Of a DNA stretch of 64,000 nucleotides, positions 26,159-32,270 are shown piece by piece (position 1 is the first letter of the stretch; the number at the start of each line of letters is the position of its first letter). The notes under the pieces are model-generated. The model saw only the letters and a list, made by a program, of their open reading frames with translations, did not search any database and had not been told where the DNA came from. The stretch comes from Candidatus Brocadiia bacterium (GTDB taxonomy: Bacteria; Planctomycetota; Brocadiia; CAIUPP01), in NCBI GenBank assembly GCA_050015075.1, contig JBEKCB010000005.1, positions 137,436-201,435 of the forward strand. Direction: 5' to 3'. The position numbers and the translations under genes are program-made.

Positions 26159-26401
26159 TACAAACGGGATTCCGATGGTCAAAATACGATATAGTATGGC
26201 TGACCGTCACGCGCGCGCAGCGTTCTGCGCGCGATAGGTTGGGTTGTCTGAGGAATTTCAGATAATCTCGTGTTTGAAAGCCGACTGTCCTTGGGAGGAC
26301 GGTCAAGTGGGAAATCCCGGATTACACGGCTTAAGCCTGCGCGCCGCAGCGGCGACGAGAACCGGGCGTCCCGCGCTGCGGCCATCTTTCGCGGACCCGT
26401 T

Positions 26402-29400
26402 ATGAACTCCAAAGAACGCCGAAGCAATGAGCCGTTGCAGCTCTCCTCGGAAGCGACCGCCGACTTCCGAGTGCTGGTGGAGAACCTCGCCGAGCCGGTC
26501 GTGATCATGGACCGCGCCGGCACGATCCGCTTCATGAACCCGCGCGCGGAGCGGATGCTGGTGCTGGGGCTCAAGGAACAGGTCGAAGCGTACCTGAAAA
26601 ACCCGTCCCACCGACAACCGGACAGCCAAGTCCGATTCCGTGTCGACCGCTTCGGCGACCTGGTCCTGCGAATCCACATTTCCAATGTCCCCTGGCAGGG
26701 CCAGCCGGCGATGCAGGTGTCGCTGAGGAACGTAACACACTACGTCACGCCCGCACAACGCTTCTCGGAGGAGACCGCGCAGTTCAATGGGGACAACGGC
26801 GGCTCGCAGAGATCGCTCGAGCAACTCGAGGCGCGGTTACAGGATCTCGCCGCGGAACGCGACAACGTTTACGCTGCGACTGCGCAGCGGCTCGCACAGG
26901 AGACCGCCCAGTTCCAAAAAAACCAGCAGGAGGCGCAGGCGCAGCGCGAACGGCTGGAGGCGCAGTTGAAAGAACTCGCCGCGGAGAAAGAACGCATCGA
27001 GCAGTCGCTCCGCGCCGAACTGGCGCAACTTCGCGAAGCCGCGGCCAAGGCGGAGCCGGCCAACGAGGACCTCGTCCAGGCCCGGCGGACGATGGACGAA
27101 TTAGCCGCCGCCCGCCGCGAACTCGAGGCGCGCACCGGACATAGCCCCGAGGAGTGGTCTTCATTGAGGCAGCTCCAGGCGGACGCAGCGGAAGCGGAGA
27201 GCCGGCTCGCGGCGGCGCAGAAGAAGTCCAGAGCGGCGGCCGAGAAGGCGAGCGCCGAGCGGCGCCAGGCGCAGGATGAGGCGCAGTCACTCCGCGAGCG
27301 GCTCGCCGAGGCCGAGCGCGCAACGGCGGAGTCGGCCGAGCGCAATCGGCGGCTCGACGAACAGGTGAATCAGCTCGCCGCCGAGCGCGAGAACGCCGCC
27401 CGACAGCTTCACGATGCGATCGCTGCGCGGGACCGGTCGCAGGACGAAATCGCGCGGTTGCAGCAACTGCTCGACGCAGCCGGCCGCGCGCAGGAGGAAT
27501 TGAGCGCCGGCCGCCAGGCGCTCGAGGAGCGGGCCCGGCAGCAGGCCGACGAACTCCTGAAGTCCGGCGCGCAACTTCAGGCCGAGTCCGCGAGCCGCGC
27601 CGAGGCGGAGAAGACCGTCGCACAACTTCAGGCGCAGGTCGCCGACGGCGACAACGCCAAGGCGGAAAGTGAACGCCTTCGGCAGCAGATTGCTGAAACC
27701 GAGAGCGCGGGCAAGAATCTGCATGCCGAGCAGCAGAGGCTGACGGAGCGCGCGCAACAGGCTGAGGAAGCGTCGGCAAAGCTCCGGGACCAGCTCCGGC
27801 AGCAACTCGAGGAACTCCAGCGTCTGCGGGATGCAAACAGCTTGATGGAGCAAGAGCGGGCGGCATCCGCGCGGGTGGCCGATGAACTGCGGGCCCGCAG
27901 TCAGACCATCGAGGGACGTGCGAAAGAGCAGGCCGACGAGCTGACCAAGGCGCTCGAGCAACTTCGGGCGGAAATCGCCCAGCGCGAAAAACTGACAGCA
28001 GAGGCTTCTCAACTCCGTGACGAGGCCGCCGAGTCCCGGCGCGTGCGCGAGGAGTTGGAGACACGGCTCCTCCAGCTTCAAGGACCCTTGGCGGAGCTGG
28101 CCCGCGCGCAGGAGCAATCCAAGGCAGAGCTTGCGAAAGAGACCGAGCTCCGGGCGCGAGCCGTGGCGGAAGTCCAGCAGCTCCGGCAAGAGGTTTCTGC
28201 GGCCCGGCAGGCGCAGGCACAGCTTGCCGCGCAACGGGCGGAGCTTCAAGTACAGGTCGAGGAGCTGACCGCGCCTCGGAAGCGGCCCGATGAGGAACTG
28301 GAGAAGGAGAAGGCGGCGCAGCTCGAGTTGGCGGAACTTACCGCCCGGTGCCTCCGGTTCCAGGAAGAGATCAAGAAACTGGCGGCATCGCAGGAACGGG
28401 CGAACGTGCAACTTCAAGTTGAGTACGCAGAGCGAAAACGAACGGAAGAAGAAAACGAGCAACTGCGCGAGCACGTCGCCGAGTCCAAGCGGGCTGCAGA
28501 GTACCTCAGGAATCAACGGAACGTGCTCGAGGGAGAGGTGAAACGATGCGGCGACGAAATCGCCGCGCTCACGCAACAACTTCGGCACGAAGGGGGCCAG
28601 GGGAAGCAGGCCCAAGTGGAAAATGAGCAGCTCCGGCAAGCGCAGGCAGGCTGGGAGGCCCGGTATTTCCAGGTCCAAGAGCAACTGAAGGAACTGGCCC
28701 GCGCACGGGAGGAGGTCAAGGCGCAACTGGAGAAGGAAGTCGGGCAGCGGACGCGAGCCGAGGCGGCAGTCCAGCAGCTCCGGCAGGAGGTCTCTGCGGC
28801 CCAGCGGGCGCGGGCAGAACTCGCCGCTCAGCAGACGCAGCTTCAGGCGCAGAGGAGGGAACTCTCTGTCTTCCAGGGGAACTCCCAGGCGGAGTTGGAG
28901 AGAGAGATTGTCGAACGAAAACGAGCCCAGGGCGAAGTGGAGCAGCTTCGCCACGAGCGTTTCGTCCTCCAGAAGGCGCAAGAGGAACTTGAATTGCGCC
29001 ACACGCAGTTCCAAACGCAACTGGATGACGACGCGAGGGCGCTGGACGAAGCGCGGCTGAAGCTTCAAGAGGAACACTCCCAGCGGGAGCTGTCAGAAAA
29101 GCAGAATGAACAGCTGTCGCAGGAAATCGGTCAGGTCAACCGAGCGCTGCAGGAGTCGGAGGCCAAACGCTCCGAACTGGAAGCGGCAACGACCGCCCGC
29201 CCGGCTGAGACGGAGAAGCTCGTGAAGCAGGTTGGCCAGGAGGCCGCCGAGCGCGAACAACTGCAGGCAAGGCAGCACGACCTCGAACTGGAGCTGGCCG
29301 AGCTCAGACAGGCGGAGGCAAAATGGCAGCGGCAGCGCGACGAACTGGAAGCGCTGGTGCAATTGAGGAGCGAGGCAATGGAAAAGACCGATCAGCAGCT

Positions 29401-30397
29401 TCAGACGGAGCTGGCGGCCCGGAAGAAGGCCGAGGAGGAAAACCTGGCCCTGCAGCAGGCCGTTGCCGAGGCCGCCCGGATGAGCGAGGAATTCGGAGGC
29501 GAGCGCGCGCGTCTTGGAGAACAGGTGAAAGAACTCTCGGACGCCCTGAACGAAACCAAGGCACACGTCCTGGTCGAAATGGACGAGCGCGCCGACGCCG
29601 AGAAGGAAAAAAAGCAGCTCGAGCAGGATGTCGAGCAACTCAAACGAGCCGACGAGGAATTGCGGACGCAACGGCTGCAGCTCATGGGGCGACTGAAGGA
29701 CAACAGCGAGGGACTCTCCAGGGTTCGGGAGCAACTCCAGGAGGAAGCCGTAGATCGGAAACGGGCTCGTGAGGAGAACGACAAGCTGCGCCAGGATCTG
29801 GGCGAGGCCTTGCGCGCAACGCAGGAGGCGAAGAAGAGCGCGGAGGAGTTTGAAGCGCGCGCGCGCGCGCACGCCGAGGAACTGATGAAGGCCAACGAAG
29901 CGCTGCGACAGGAAGCCGCCGAACGCCAACGCGCCCGGGAGGAAAACGACCAACTCCGGAGCCTGACGGCCGAGACCAAAGCGGCCTTGGAGGAATCGGC
30001 GACGCAGCGCGACGAGTATAAGAGTTGGGCCGAACAGCGCGCAGAAGAACTGCGGCGGCAAATCGCCCTGCAGCAGCAAGCCCAGGAAGAGAACCAGCAA
30101 CTTCAGCAGAAACTCGCCAAGTCCATGCAGTCCGTGGAGACCTTCAGGGCAGGATTCGAGGCGCTCAAAGGCCTGGCGAAAGCGAGCGCCGACGAAACAG
30201 CCAGGGAGAACGAAGCCCTTCGCCAGAAGCTGGCCGAGTACGAGCGGGAAGGACAGTCGCTGGGCACGGTCCTGAACGACCTCTCCGCGTCAGGGAGCAA
30301 GTTCCTCGGCGCGCTCGAGAAGTTCAAAGCGCACGGTCGGGAGCCGCCTCGCCCTGAGACCCCGGGCGCAGCGTCCGAGGCCGGGGAGAATCGCTGA
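26402..30397 (+). CDS. PAS-domain protein with very long repetitive coiled coil (56-aa period)
   Basis: FRVLVENLAEPVVIMDRAGTIRFMNPRAERML...WQGQPAMQVSLRNVT (PAS/PAC), then ~1200 aa of E/Q/R/L/A coiled coil. Confidence 0.88.
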   Translation: MNSKERRSNEPLQLSSEATADFRVLVENLAEPVVIMDRAGTIRFMNPRAERMLVLGLKEQVEAYLKNPSHRQPDSQVRFRVDRFGDLVLRIHISNVPWQGQPAMQVSLRNVTHYVTPAQRFSEETAQFNGDNGGSQRSLEQLEARLQDLAAERDNVYAATAQRLAQETAQFQKNQQEAQAQRERLEAQLKELAAEKERIEQSLRAELAQLREAAAKAEPANEDLVQARRTMDELAAARRELEARTGHSPEEWSSLRQLQADAAEAESRLAAAQKKSRAAAEKASAERRQAQDEAQSLRERLAEAERATAESAERNRRLDEQVNQLAAERENAARQLHDAIAARDRSQDEIARLQQLLDAAGRAQEELSAGRQALEERARQQADELLKSGAQLQAESASRAEAEKTVAQLQAQVADGDNAKAESERLRQQIAETESAGKNLHAEQQRLTERAQQAEEASAKLRDQLRQQLEELQRLRDANSLMEQERAASARVADELRARSQTIEGRAKEQADELTKALEQLRAEIAQREKLTAEASQLRDEAAESRRVREELETRLLQLQGPLAELARAQEQSKAELAKETELRARAVAEVQQLRQEVSAARQAQAQLAAQRAELQVQVEELTAPRKRPDEELEKEKAAQLELAELTARCLRFQEEIKKLAASQERANVQLQVEYAERKRTEEENEQLREHVAESKRAAEYLRNQRNVLEGEVKRCGDEIAALTQQLRHEGGQGKQAQVENEQLRQAQAGWEARYFQVQEQLKELARAREEVKAQLEKEVGQRTRAEAAVQQLRQEVSAAQRARAELAAQQTQLQAQRRELSVFQGNSQAELEREIVERKRAQGEVEQLRHERFVLQKAQEELELRHTQFQTQLDDDARALDEARLKLQEEHSQRELSEKQNEQLSQEIGQVNRALQESEAKRSELEAATTARPAETEKLVKQVGQEAAEREQLQARQHDLELELAELRQAEAKWQRQRDELEALVQLRSEAMEKTDQQLQTELAARKKAEEENLALQQAVAEAARMSEEFGGERARLGEQVKELSDALNETKAHVLVEMDERADAEKEKKQLEQDVEQLKRADEELRTQRLQLMGRLKDNSEGLSRVREQLQEEAVDRKRAREENDKLRQDLGEALRATQEAKKSAEEFEARARAHAEELMKANEALRQEAAERQRAREENDQLRSLTAETKAALEESATQRDEYKSWAEQRAEELRRQIALQQQAQEENQQLQQKLAKSMQSVETFRAGFEALKGLAKASADETARENEALRQKLAEYEREGQSLGTVLNDLSASGSKFLGALEKFKAHGREPPRPETPGAASEAGENR

Positions 30398-30500
30398 ATC
30401 CTGACCGCGGTCCGCGCGGAGAAACGTCAGGGCACAGTGGCGCGGGCTGTTGCGCAGACTCAACGTCCGGAGGCGAACGCAACCGGACCCGACTTCGCAA

Positions 30501-30614
30501 CTATTTCCTCTTGCACGTGCATTTCGCCGAAGGTTTCTTACAGGCTGAACAAACTCCGTCCTTGATCGCTGCCCCGCATTTGCTGCACGGGCTACATCCG
30601 CATGTCTGGCACAT
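30501..30614 (-). CDS. small cysteine-rich metallothionein-like protein (37 aa; not in the ORF track)
   Basis: Manual translation MCQTCGCSPCSKCGAAIKDGVCSACKKPSAKCTCKRK*; 9 Cys; RBS GAAAGGGG 10 nt upstream. Confidence 0.8.
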   Translation of the reverse strand: MCQTCGCSPCSKCGAAIKDGVCSACKKPSAKCTCKRK

Positions 30615-30659
30615 GATAAAGCATCCCCTTTCTTCTGCCAGCCGCTCCACTGTGTCCTT

Positions 30660-30694
30660 ACTGAAAGCTAAGCAATTGAAAGCAGAATTGTCAA
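30660..30694 (-). promoter_or_regulatory. candidate promoter/operator of the Cys-rich peptide gene
   Basis: TTGACA (overlapping the upstream stop)-18bp-TAGCTT; GCTTTCA direct repeat twice. Confidence 0.45.
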
Positions 30695-31833
30695 GACTTT
30701 TTCGGCCCCTTGAACCGCCGCGTGGGCACCGTCTCCGCGCGCATTCCGGTCGCGACCGCGACGGGAACCGCGCCGCCGCCGGCTTGCTTCAGGGCGGAAA
30801 TGACTTCCTTCTCCCGGCCGGGCGCGACCGAGATGAAACTGTTCGTCCCCAGCACGATCTTGCTGCCCAGCGCGCCGCCGCCTGTGGCGGCGGTGATCAA
30901 CGCCTCGATCTCGGGAACGTTGTATCCCAGGTAATCCCGGAGCAACTCGTGCTGCTTGTCCATCATCTCGACCAGCCGGTCGTCGTCAATCCCGTACTCG
31001 CTCTCCAGCAACTCGAAGGCCTGCCGGCTGAGATCGCGCATCGCCAGCTGCGCGTACACGACGCCGGCATCCGCGTCCGGCAGTTCCTTGAGGCGCGGGA
31101 TCACCTCGTCGTCGGAGGCGTCGCGCAGGTTGAACCCCTCCTGCATTTTCACGACTGCGCTCAGCGCCGAGAGCGTGGCCCGGACCGCCTGCGCGTGCCG
31201 GTCGAGGCCATTCCCGCCCGGCCCGGCGCAGCAGCTCACCAGGCCCGGCAGCGCGCGGTCAATCAGCGCCACCTGGGACGGCCTGGCCGCCGGGAGCGCC
31301 GGGTCGCCGGGCTCCAGGAACAACATCCCGCCCAGAATGCAGGCGTACGTCTCCGGGATCCACCACGCGGTGCGCGGCTCGTCCCGATAGGCCCGGCAGG
31401 CGGCCTGCGCCGTCTCATTGGCCGAGAGCTCGGCCAGTCGCTCATCCAGCGAGAGCAGCGCAACGGCCCACGCGGCGAGCAGCGCCGGGCTGTCCGGCAG
31501 CGCATCCGTCCAGGGCGCGCGGGAAATGACGTGAAAATCGAATCCGGCCTGAAGTTTTTCTTTCCGCGGCGGCGCCGCGCGAAACGCCTTTGAAAGCGCC
31601 GGCATCTGCGGGAACGCTTCCGCCGCTTCGCCCGGCTCGAACGACATCGGCTCCGGAATCCACGGCGCGCTCACCGAAAACCGGCCGTCGCTCCGAGGCG
31701 TCGCCGCAACGGCGGTGCGCAGGTCCAGCGCCAGCGTGACGGCCGGAAGGCCGAGGAAATACTGAAGGTCGCCGAACAGCCGGACCGGCCAGGGCACGGA
31801 GACGATGAGCGTTTTCCCCTGCTCGACGGTCAT
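30691..31833 (-). CDS. GHMP kinase (galactokinase-like) fold protein with degenerate motifs
   Basis: VPWPVRLFGDLQYFLGLPAVTLALD, YACILGG, MMDKQHELLRDYL...PEIEALI...GALGSKI follow the GHMP layout. Confidence 0.7.
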   Translation of the reverse strand: MTVEQGKTLIVSVPWPVRLFGDLQYFLGLPAVTLALDLRTAVAATPRSDGRFSVSAPWIPEPMSFEPGEAAEAFPQMPALSKAFRAAPPRKEKLQAGFDFHVISRAPWTDALPDSPALLAAWAVALLSLDERLAELSANETAQAACRAYRDEPRTAWWIPETYACILGGMLFLEPGDPALPAARPSQVALIDRALPGLVSCCAGPGGNGLDRHAQAVRATLSALSAVVKMQEGFNLRDASDDEVIPRLKELPDADAGVVYAQLAMRDLSRQAFELLESEYGIDDDRLVEMMDKQHELLRDYLGYNVPEIEALITAATGGGALGSKIVLGTNSFISVAPGREKEVISALKQAGGGAVPVAVATGMRAETVPTRRFKGPKKS

Positions 31834-32270
31834 TGAGGCTCCGCCTTGAACGGTCCCTCGAACGCCGTGTCGAAGTCGAAACCGCCCGCGAAATCCTCCC
31901 GCGCGTCGCTTTCCGTCTTCCCCAACAGCCCGTGCTCGACCAGGTTGAAGACGATCTCGCCGAAATCCTCCGTGCGCCGGACGCGCCAGGTCCGGAAAAC
32001 GGTCGGCGCCAGCGGTCCGAACATTTGCGCGGCGTACTCGCGAATGCCGTTGAGGAGTTCCTGCCCGCTGACGTGCCGCTGCGCCGGCGTCAGGTCCGGG
32101 GCGTTGCGCCCGAGCGCCTTCTGCGTGTACGTCAGCGCGTCGTAGATGAAAAGATATGCCGCCAGTTCGTAGCGCGAATCGCGGGAAAGGATCTGCTGCC
32201 GGATGGCGGTCTCCGCCGGCACCGCCTCCGGCTTCGCTGCGGGACTCTGCGGAGCTTTTTCCTCAGTCAT
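31830..32270 (-). CDS. Minf_1886 / TIGR04138-type PVC-superphylum conserved protein
   Basis: DSRYELAAYLF, RHVSGQELLNGIREYAAQMFGPLA...W.VRRTEDFGEIVFNLVE. Confidence 0.85.
   Translation of the reverse strand: MTEEKAPQSPAAKPEAVPAETAIRQQILSRDSRYELAAYLFIYDALTYTQKALGRNAPDLTPAQRHVSGQELLNGIREYAAQMFGPLAPTVFRTWRVRRTEDFGEIVFNLVEHGLLGKTESDAREDFAGGFDFDTAFEGPFKAEPQ

Follow-up and report, generated by a model that had tools for sequence, protein, structure and literature searches.

The window analysed here, i.e. the whole stretch of 64,000 nucleotides from contig JBEKCB010000005.1 of a Candidatus Brocadiia bacterium, carries on its minus strand, at positions 30501-30614, a gene for a Cys-rich microprotein of 37 aa, which runs from an ATG at 30612-30614 to a TAG stop codon at 30501-30503 and whose translation is MCQTCGCSPCSKCGAAIKDGVCSACKKPSAKCTCKRK. 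An earlier reading of this DNA made without database searches (the sequence-only reading) had picked out this minus-strand open reading frame (ORF) as a 37-aa protein with nine Cys, rich in Lys, free of aromatic residues and His and preceded by a clear ribosome-binding site, and the sequence and its translation agree with this description. The Cys residues lie at positions 2, 5, 7, 10, 13, 22, 25, 32 and 34, with the spacing that had been described (C2-x2-C5-x-C7-x2-C10-x2-C13-x8-C22-x2-C25-x6-C32-x-C34), and make up 24% of the protein, which has three CxxCG knuckles, 7 Lys, 1 Arg and no F, W, Y or H. Among the 507 ORFs of at least 30 aa in the window, this frame has the highest Cys density, with 10 Cys in a 37-aa stretch (a count that includes one Cys from the upstream extension discussed below), followed by frames with 8 and 6. 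The motif M-C-x-x-C-G-C occurs once in the six frames of the 4.64-Mb genome, i.e. in the microprotein gene, which is present in a single copy.

The Shine-Dalgarno (SD)-like sequence GAAAGGGG can be read from the DNA at 30625-30632 (minus strand), 10 nt 5' of the ATG. A mechanically produced ORF list gives the same frame as 30501-30650, with a product of 49 aa starting at a GTG (30648-30650). Because all 79 aligned family members begin with M-C and because of the ribosome-binding site, the ATG at 30612-30614 is, on this comparative evidence, the true start rather than the upstream GTG; the in-frame stretch at 30615-30650 (minus strand), which contains the SD, is most likely a 5' untranslated leader. 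Two candidate promoter hexamers were found by eye further upstream on the same strand: a -35 hexamer, TTGACA, at 30689-30694, which shares bases with the stop codon (30691-30693) that ends the 380-aa gene upstream, and a -10 hexamer, TAGCTT, at 30665-30670, which lies 18 nt past the TTGACA and matches TATAAT at 3/6 positions (T1, A2 and T6 are kept). Both are invariant in the genus mate, which suggests that the microprotein gene has its own promoter. A consensus promoter scan did not report the pair; TAGCTT lay under the scan threshold. The 3' spacer (30398-30500, minus strand) is common to this gene and a converging 1375-aa gene on the plus strand that ends at 30397. A scan for intrinsic terminators 3' of the gene returned no terminator-like sites, the fold of 30398-30503 was no better than that of shuffled sequences (z -0.52), and no riboswitch or leader RNA matched within 30350-30800 in Rfam at E up to 1.

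We used a pattern search together with tblastn to scan one genome per species across 185,579 species, which gave 255 pattern matches and 213 confirmed loci. The locus-level results given here (frames, neighbours, SD motifs and selection) rest on 80 of the 213 confirmed loci, all of them in metagenome bins, and residue conservation rests on 79 distinct aligned members. The sequence-only reading had named homologues with conserved Cys spacing as a check on its claim, and such homologues clearly exist: the frame is intact with all nine Cys at 80/80 loci, and the residues invariant in the 79 members are M1, C2, C5, G6, C7, P9, C10, C13, G14, C22, C25, C32 and C34. With Q3, I17, V21 and G24, which are also conserved in at least 90% of members, 17 of the 34 core positions reach this level, and the lack of F, W, Y and H extends to all 79 cores. 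Over 3240 pairs, the mean synonymous difference (pS) was 0.82 and the mean nonsynonymous difference (pN) 0.19, indicating purifying selection; TGC and TGT are both used in every Cys column, and the G+C content of third codon positions ranges from 0.29 to 0.88 and follows that of the host (r 0.80). Members are ∼60-80% identical across several phyla. A strict SD motif is present at -18 to -4 in 70/80 loci, as compared with 6% at random positions in the same loci. Because of this conservation (homologues, intact frames and purifying selection) we regard the status of the gene as settled: judged by comparison of its homologues, the 37-codon frame is a real gene under strong selection at the protein level.

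A set of 61 genomes from the window's class contained full-length matches, within short open frames, in the genome that contains the window and in seven others. Two copies are damaged: one of these eight, in G024 (L009/L028, G024:C93), lacks C22, C25, G6, P9 and G14 and extends to 60 aa, and in a ninth genome (G039; L010, G039:C10) the frame is shifted after C7. Some lineages are evidently in the process of losing the gene.

These results bear directly on the idea that the product is not itself a functional protein, i.e. that the frame is a chance ORF or encodes the precursor of a peptide modified by a radical S-adenosylmethionine (SAM) enzyme (SCIFF/ranthipeptide). Small size, richness in Cys and the usual lack of annotation would fit this idea, as would a weak radical-SAM match downstream of the gene at one locus (L096, in a Kuenenia-labelled bin). 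However, purifying selection acts on the protein across phyla, the whole 34-residue core is conserved with no division into leader and core, no transporter or protease partner was seen, and the radical-SAM neighbour is confined to 1/80 loci, which makes a modified-peptide precursor very unlikely; taken as a whole, we consider the idea extremely improbable.

None of the 79 members, the window protein included, has a significant match in Pfam. The best matches were to zf_C2H2_13 (E 0.0095, 12 members), Zn_Ribbon_1 (PF13240, E 0.0044, 1/79) and Metallothio_Euk (E 2.5, 4/79), and matches to NuoE were weak and not significant (best E 1.2, 5/79). No entry in NCBIfam or PHROGs covers the family, nor does any entry in the PDB, and matches in the ESM Atlas were confined to clusters of 'hypothetical protein' (0.81-0.83). 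A phmmer search of 1.84 billion representative proteins returned 18 matches at E ≤1e-3, of which 17 are family members; the eighteenth, P0019, was rejected as an unrelated repeat protein. Searches of the literature on metallothioneins with anammox bacteria or Planctomycetes, on small unannotated Cys-rich proteins and on metallothioneins of bacteria turned up no work on the family, and six of its N-terminal heptapeptides were found in no paper (supplementary files lay outside the scope of both). Six of ten exact family sequences are absent from a collection of 15 billion proteins, indicating that gene callers often miss the microprotein gene. The suggestion of an undescribed, His-free, Cys-rich family is thus borne out in that the family is missing from curated libraries and from solved structures, and this family of ∼35-45 aa microproteins is uncatalogued.

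The proposal that the protein is a metallothionein is supported in part. Low mass, 24% Cys and the lack of aromatic residues stand in its favour, whereas no member matched PF02069, the SmtA/BmtA family (0/79 at E up to 10), and no recurrent metal-sensor or transporter neighbours were found among those annotated at the 80 loci. Nor was PF02069 found above cut-off in the genome that contains the window, and by its profile matches the family is not an SmtA/BmtA metallothionein. In a classical metallothionein, the nine thiolates would form a single M(II)3Cys9 cluster, as in an animal beta-domain, or a Cu(I) cluster, and detoxification would consist in the sequestration of Zn, Cd or Cu. The size and composition of the family (no aromatic residues or His, rich in Lys, Ser, Thr, Gly, Ala and Pro) and its combination of CxC and CxxC motifs would fit this explanation, and the cited part of PMC7387436 describes nine-Cys clusters in a bacterial protein too, i.e. 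the metallothionein of Pseudomonas fluorescens Q2-87, with its Zn3Cys9His and Cd4Cys9His clusters. In one member, from a Phycisphaerales-labelled bin (L038:4001-4153), the C-terminal module (VCSGC...C.C) occurs a second time after C34, which brings the count to 13 Cys in 50 residues. The CxxC-x6-CxC half may thus be able to duplicate as a unit, and the duplication recalls the modular growth of thioneins. However, no metallothionein profile gave a significant match, and the N-terminus is fixed and Gly, Pro, Ile and Val occur at invariant positions, which points to separate sites and not to a single cluster. Members come from anoxic groundwater, peat and sediment, and sulfide in such settings keeps free Zn, Cd and Cu low, which also counts against detoxification.

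AlphaFold2, run with the 79-row alignment and no metals, predicted a small defined fold (mean pLDDT 81) with a turn/helix at residues 2-5 and, between two of the knuckles, a beta bridge that pairs residues 17-18 with 21-22. The zinc-ribbon pattern C10xxC13G-x7-C22xxC25 is present in the sequence alongside the weak profile matches, and the sole similarities found with a profile search of the PDB were to the Cys4 zinc ribbons of RecR and eL37 over C10 to C25 (E 0.06, not significant). Foldseek against the PDB gave a best E of 8.3, and VIA-align found no chain with Z ≥2 among 48,161, the model being too small for such scores. No genuine fusions or N-terminal extensions were found; 13 longer matches were rejected as fusions as they were upstream mis-calls or read-through of short contigs. 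The predicted fold, together with the conservation of half of the core positions, is more in keeping with a structured protein that has several metal sites than with a loose thionein.

Such a structured protein could also be a purely structural zinc-ribbon or zinc-knuckle microprotein, i.e. a small regulator with two ZnCys4 sites and one spare Cys that binds a protein, RNA or DNA partner and in which the metals serve only to hold the fold. The inclusion of non-Cys residues among the 17 strongly conserved positions, the confident fold predicted without metals and the weak ribbon matches of the knuckles (to RecR and eL37 and, for one member, to Zn_Ribbon_1) are all consistent with this explanation, as are the Lys-rich tails of most members; the existence of basic and acidic paralogues, each with its own conserved context, suggests specialised partners. 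However, no conserved neighbour or fusion indicates what the partner might be, and as the family occurs in ∼3% of genomes, any partner would need to be present everywhere or else share this patchy distribution. In addition, two Cys4 sites would leave one of the nine invariant Cys over, the strict requirement for Cys at residue 2 is left unexplained, and the acid-tailed members argue against general binding to nucleic acids. We take this explanation seriously while judging it unlikely.

The N-terminus is exactly M-C-x-x-C-G-C in 79/79 members, with no residue in front, whereas the tails past C34 differ in length (1 to ∼35 residues) and in character, being strongly basic in some members and strongly acidic in others (the net charge is +3 to +8 in 65/79 members and as low as -11 among acid-tailed ones). 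This difference between a fixed N-terminus and variable tails argues that Cys must be residue 2. According to the cited part of PMC12284835, the N-terminal CxxCGC motif of HypB binds Ni(II) with picomolar affinity in a square-planar site, the ligands of which are the N-terminal amine, Cys2, Cys5 and Cys7. The family shares M1-C2-x-x-C5-G6-C7 with this site, with the same residues in the same register, a correspondence that the sequence-only reading had not noted. The correspondence can be seen within a single genome, the Thermodesulfobacteriota carrier G346, in which HypB (L141:1432-2175) begins MCETCGCG and the microprotein begins MCQTCGCT. At the level of this motif, we infer a Ni-type site at the N-terminus of the microprotein. 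The genome that contains the window has [NiFe]-hydrogenase genes and a HypA-HypB pair (L110:1441-2730, on G000 contig C2). In the Planctomycetota sample, Ni-dependent acetyl-CoA synthase (PF03598) is present in 7/9 carriers of the microprotein gene and 50/292 non-carriers (Fisher p 1.7e-4, a value inflated by kinship), and it was found in 11 of the 15 carriers that were examined individually.

The hosts are mostly anaerobic bacteria, with a few archaea. They belong to Brocadiia (the genus mate), Phycisphaerae/Sedimentisphaerales, Pirellulales, 'Deltaproteobacteria'/Thermodesulfobacteriota/Deferrimicrobium, Nitrospirae (Nitrospirota), Omnitrophota and Dehalococcoidales, and a few bins are assigned to Patescibacteria, Micrarchaeota and Woesearchaeota (candidate phyla radiation/DPANN). 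The gene is accessory and patchily distributed: it was found in 9/301 sampled Planctomycetota and in 10/301 genomes from the phylum of G346 (∼3%). Neither 72,556 plasmids nor 50,697 phage records contained a match by tblastn.

Synteny with the window is kept only in the genus mate, and across the 80 loci there is no constant partner gene, the microprotein always standing alone; the largest cluster of flanking genes, PheT, accounts for 9/80 loci that essentially represent one lineage. Genes for defence against oxygen and stress lie within 4 kb in 18/80 loci (7/37 context groups), in arrangements and phyla that vary, while 0.5% of the genome that contains the window lies within 4 kb of such a gene when the same seeds are used. 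These neighbours include an Fe/Mn superoxide dismutase (SOD) at 6 loci from two lineages, with an apparent SOD-microprotein operon in one Omnitrophota bin, WrbA quinone reductase at 4 loci, rubrerythrin-like proteins at 3 and a peroxiredoxin at 1. In addition, a CsbD gene lies ∼40 nt upstream in 4 loci from Deferrimicrobium-like bins (L032, L036, L039 and L066), with the conserved ribosome-binding site AAGGAGGT between the two genes; this CsbD-microprotein pair is probably a two-gene stress operon. An idea that the neighbours annotated as 'FMN reductase' were ArsH, and hence that the context was linked to arsenic, was rejected, as these neighbours are WrbA and score above the TIGR01755 cut-off.

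The stress neighbours raise the possibility that the microprotein is itself a redox protein of anaerobic oxygen defence, e.g. a rubredoxin- or desulforedoxin-like Fe(Cys)4 protein, a small Fe-S carrier or a sacrificial zinc-thiolate or thiol buffer. The recurrence of SOD, WrbA, rubrerythrin-like, peroxiredoxin and CsbD neighbours would be explained in this way, as would the bias of the distribution towards anaerobes; the C7-x2-C10-x2-C13 segment has a ferredoxin-like CxxCxxC spacing, and CxxCG knuckles are a rubredoxin signature too. However, the Pfam matches of the 79 members (E up to 10) included neither rubredoxin nor ferredoxin profiles, the members lack the aromatic core that rubredoxins have (F, W or Y in 0/79), and the matches to NuoE fall short of significance. 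The neighbourhood evidence is also suggestive only and is absent at the window locus. We consider a redox protein of this kind improbable.

One locus, L078:821-2056 from a Woesearchaeota-labelled bin, provides the sole metal-transport neighbour among those annotated: here the microprotein gene abuts (0 nt) a gene for a 373-aa permease (Pfam ArsP_1) with a sub-cut-off likeness to SO_0444-type Cu/Zn efflux transporters. A classical detoxifying metallothionein would fit this archaeal-bin locus, although no context of metal sensors or efflux was found at the other 79 loci, and with the evidence from profiles, fixed residues and habitats we regard that explanation as distinctly unlikely.

Four Phycisphaerales/Sedimentisphaerales bins each contain two paralogues (L040/L082, L044/L083, L047/L087 and L060/L080). 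In these bins the gene for the basic paralogue lies between genes for a class-III aminotransferase and a helix-turn-helix protein, and the gene for the paralogue with the acidic core lies 20 nt past two genes for HtrA-like proteases and ahead of PheT.

The microprotein is predicted, almost certainly correctly, to bind metal ions; this binding, as well as the assignment of sites, the identity of the metal and the physiological role, is what we infer in the following. The reading that we favour, tentatively and with slightly less than even confidence, is that of a folded multi-site metal-thiolate protein, with a HypB-type N-terminal site, a zinc-ribbon-like site and a C-terminal CxC, which in anaerobes would buffer metal ions or deliver them as a chaperone. 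According to this reading, the gene would be expressed and independently transcribed, and the 34-residue core would fold around two or three metal ions, with the thiolates of the nine invariant Cys as ligands. Removal of Met1 would leave a free N-terminal amine that, with Cys2, Cys5 and Cys7, could form a HypB-type square-planar site; C10-x2-C13-G and C22-x2-C25 would form a zinc-ribbon-like hairpin site; and C32-x-C34 would either close one of these sites or bridge both. In the cytosol, this small protein would then buffer metal or chaperone it, being metallothionein-like in a broad sense, and would act in anaerobes alongside the oxygen and general-stress response, with Ni(II) and Zn(II) as the first candidate metals.

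A more specific form of this reading, which we think unlikely and advance with greater reserve, is that the microprotein provides the first free-standing HypB-type nickel site (amine/Cys2-Cys5-Cys7), joined to a Cys6 zinc module. It would be a Ni or Ni/Zn thiolate buffer that is switched on with oxygen-stress genes and that holds Ni, or hands it over, when metalloenzymes are damaged. Its hosts would be oxygen-sensitive anaerobes rich in Ni enzymes (anammox bacteria, sulfate reducers and Omnitrophota), and if this form were true, the microprotein would be a prokaryotic metallothionein or metallochaperone of a new class, overlooked by genome annotation.

A number of observations weigh against the favoured reading or its nickel-specific form. 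The AlphaFold2 model includes no metals and the site assignment is a proposal independent of it, and a zinc protein that binds a partner would likewise account for the strong conservation of non-Cys residues. The genes near the microprotein gene offer little that is related to metals: no ArsR/SmtB, Zur, NikR or hyp/coo genes are present among the annotated neighbours at the 80 loci, and metal-homeostasis genes are nearly absent, the lone case being the possible, sub-cut-off Cu/Zn-efflux-type permease at L078. In the window, the microprotein gene lies next to housekeeping genes (those for a GHMP-like kinase, Minf_1886, MetRS and RicT, all upstream on the same strand). The stress link is treated as a lead because the stress-neighbour groups are partly defined by the same genes, so that the grouping is partly circular, and because the background comes from one genome. 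The nickel proposal rests on a seven-residue motif, and its agreement with the distribution of Ni enzymes is uneven: HypB was not found in 4/7 intact related carriers (completeness 97-100%) and is present in 1/5 carriers from other phyla, and in two of these five (G349 and G350, the completeness of which is not established) HypB, [NiFe]-hydrogenase and acetyl-CoA synthase were all not found. Conversely, the 50 non-carriers with acetyl-CoA synthase in the Planctomycetota sample manage without the microprotein gene. Furthermore, the CxxCGC motif is present in 0/27 HypB ORFs from the window's class, including the HypB of the genome that contains the window (L110, L112-L140).

A related idea is that the microprotein acts as a stand-in tip for motif-less HypB. 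As a general rule this was rejected: most of the genomes of the class with a motif-less HypB are without the microprotein, which argues against simple replacement of a missing HypB tip. The patchy co-occurrence with HypB and Ni enzymes likewise indicates that the microprotein is not, in general, a detached HypB tip for hydrogenase maturation.

The remaining features near the gene are as follows. Upstream on the minus strand, the gene at 30691-31833 encodes a 380-aa GHMP-kinase-like protein, the C-terminal part of which has a weak, sub-cut-off likeness to mevalonate kinase and which has no Pfam match; its start overlaps by 4 nt (stop/start) with the preceding gene (31830-32270, minus strand), which encodes a Minf_1886-family protein typical of Planctomycetes and Verrucomicrobia. 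The converging 1375-aa ORF (26270-30397, plus strand) has an N-terminal PAS domain followed by a long region of SMC-like coiled-coil similarity and is 77% identical in the genus mate. Antisense to it, at 28513-28719 (minus strand), lies a 68-aa ORF rich in Ser, Cys and Trp, with 8 Cys in a 37-aa stretch, that looks like an antisense-frame artefact.

If metals are bound as proposed, the family would represent a new type of small metal-thiolate protein for anaerobes that depend on Ni, Fe and Zn enzymes, among them the anammox bacteria of wastewater treatment. According to the cited part of PMC7387436, SmtA and MymT were the only bacterial metallothioneins whose biological role had been studied by 2020. 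An N-terminus that copies the HypB nickel tip exactly provides a concrete hypothesis that can be tested cheaply, and the family also illustrates that, in most metagenome bins, conserved genes 35-40 codons long have yet to be annotated.

Comparison with known systems places the family beside several groups of small metal proteins. The SmtA/BmtA metallothioneins have a fold that is partly zinc-finger-like. Their cluster includes His ligands, whereas the family has no His or aromatic residues, a different Cys spacing, ∼20 fewer residues and no adjoining SmtB-type repressor; the likeness to this group (PF02069, including the Pseudomonas PflQ2 metallothionein) lies in small size, richness in Cys and, as given in the cited part of PMC7387436, nine Cys in a metal cluster. 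With the Cys4 ribbons of RecR and eL37 the family can be aligned over C10-x2-C13-G, a short predicted beta hairpin and C22-x2-C25-G, but the family has five further invariant Cys and the matches, as noted, are not significant. The M(II)3Cys9 beta-domain of animal metallothioneins and the small fungal Cu-thioneins likewise have nine Cys in ∼30 residues, CxC and CxxC motifs, a composition rich in Lys, Ser and Gly and no aromatic residues. There is, however, no sequence relationship between the family and the animal beta-domain (Metallothio_Euk, best E 2.5), and the family has Gly, Pro, Ile and Val at invariant positions, an N-terminus that does not vary and a fold that is predicted with confidence when no metal is included. 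The haloarchaeal mu-proteins, which are C(P)XCG zinc-finger microproteins, resemble it in being small and stand-alone.

The two nickel proteins provide the remaining comparisons. In HypB the motif is followed by a disordered linker and a GTPase domain, whereas in the family it leads directly into six more invariant Cys, and no likeness was found past the seven residues. CooT, an accessory protein of CO dehydrogenase, is a 7.1-kDa protein of seven beta strands with one Cys per monomer that is encoded in coo operons, whereas the family members have nine Cys and half the size of CooT and are never encoded within coo/acs clusters. CooT and the microprotein are nevertheless alike in being small stand-alone proteins of anaerobes with a Cys at residue 2, which in CooT takes part in Ni binding (as reported in the cited part of PMC6006190), and both co-occur with Ni enzymes of the CO/acetyl-CoA pathway.

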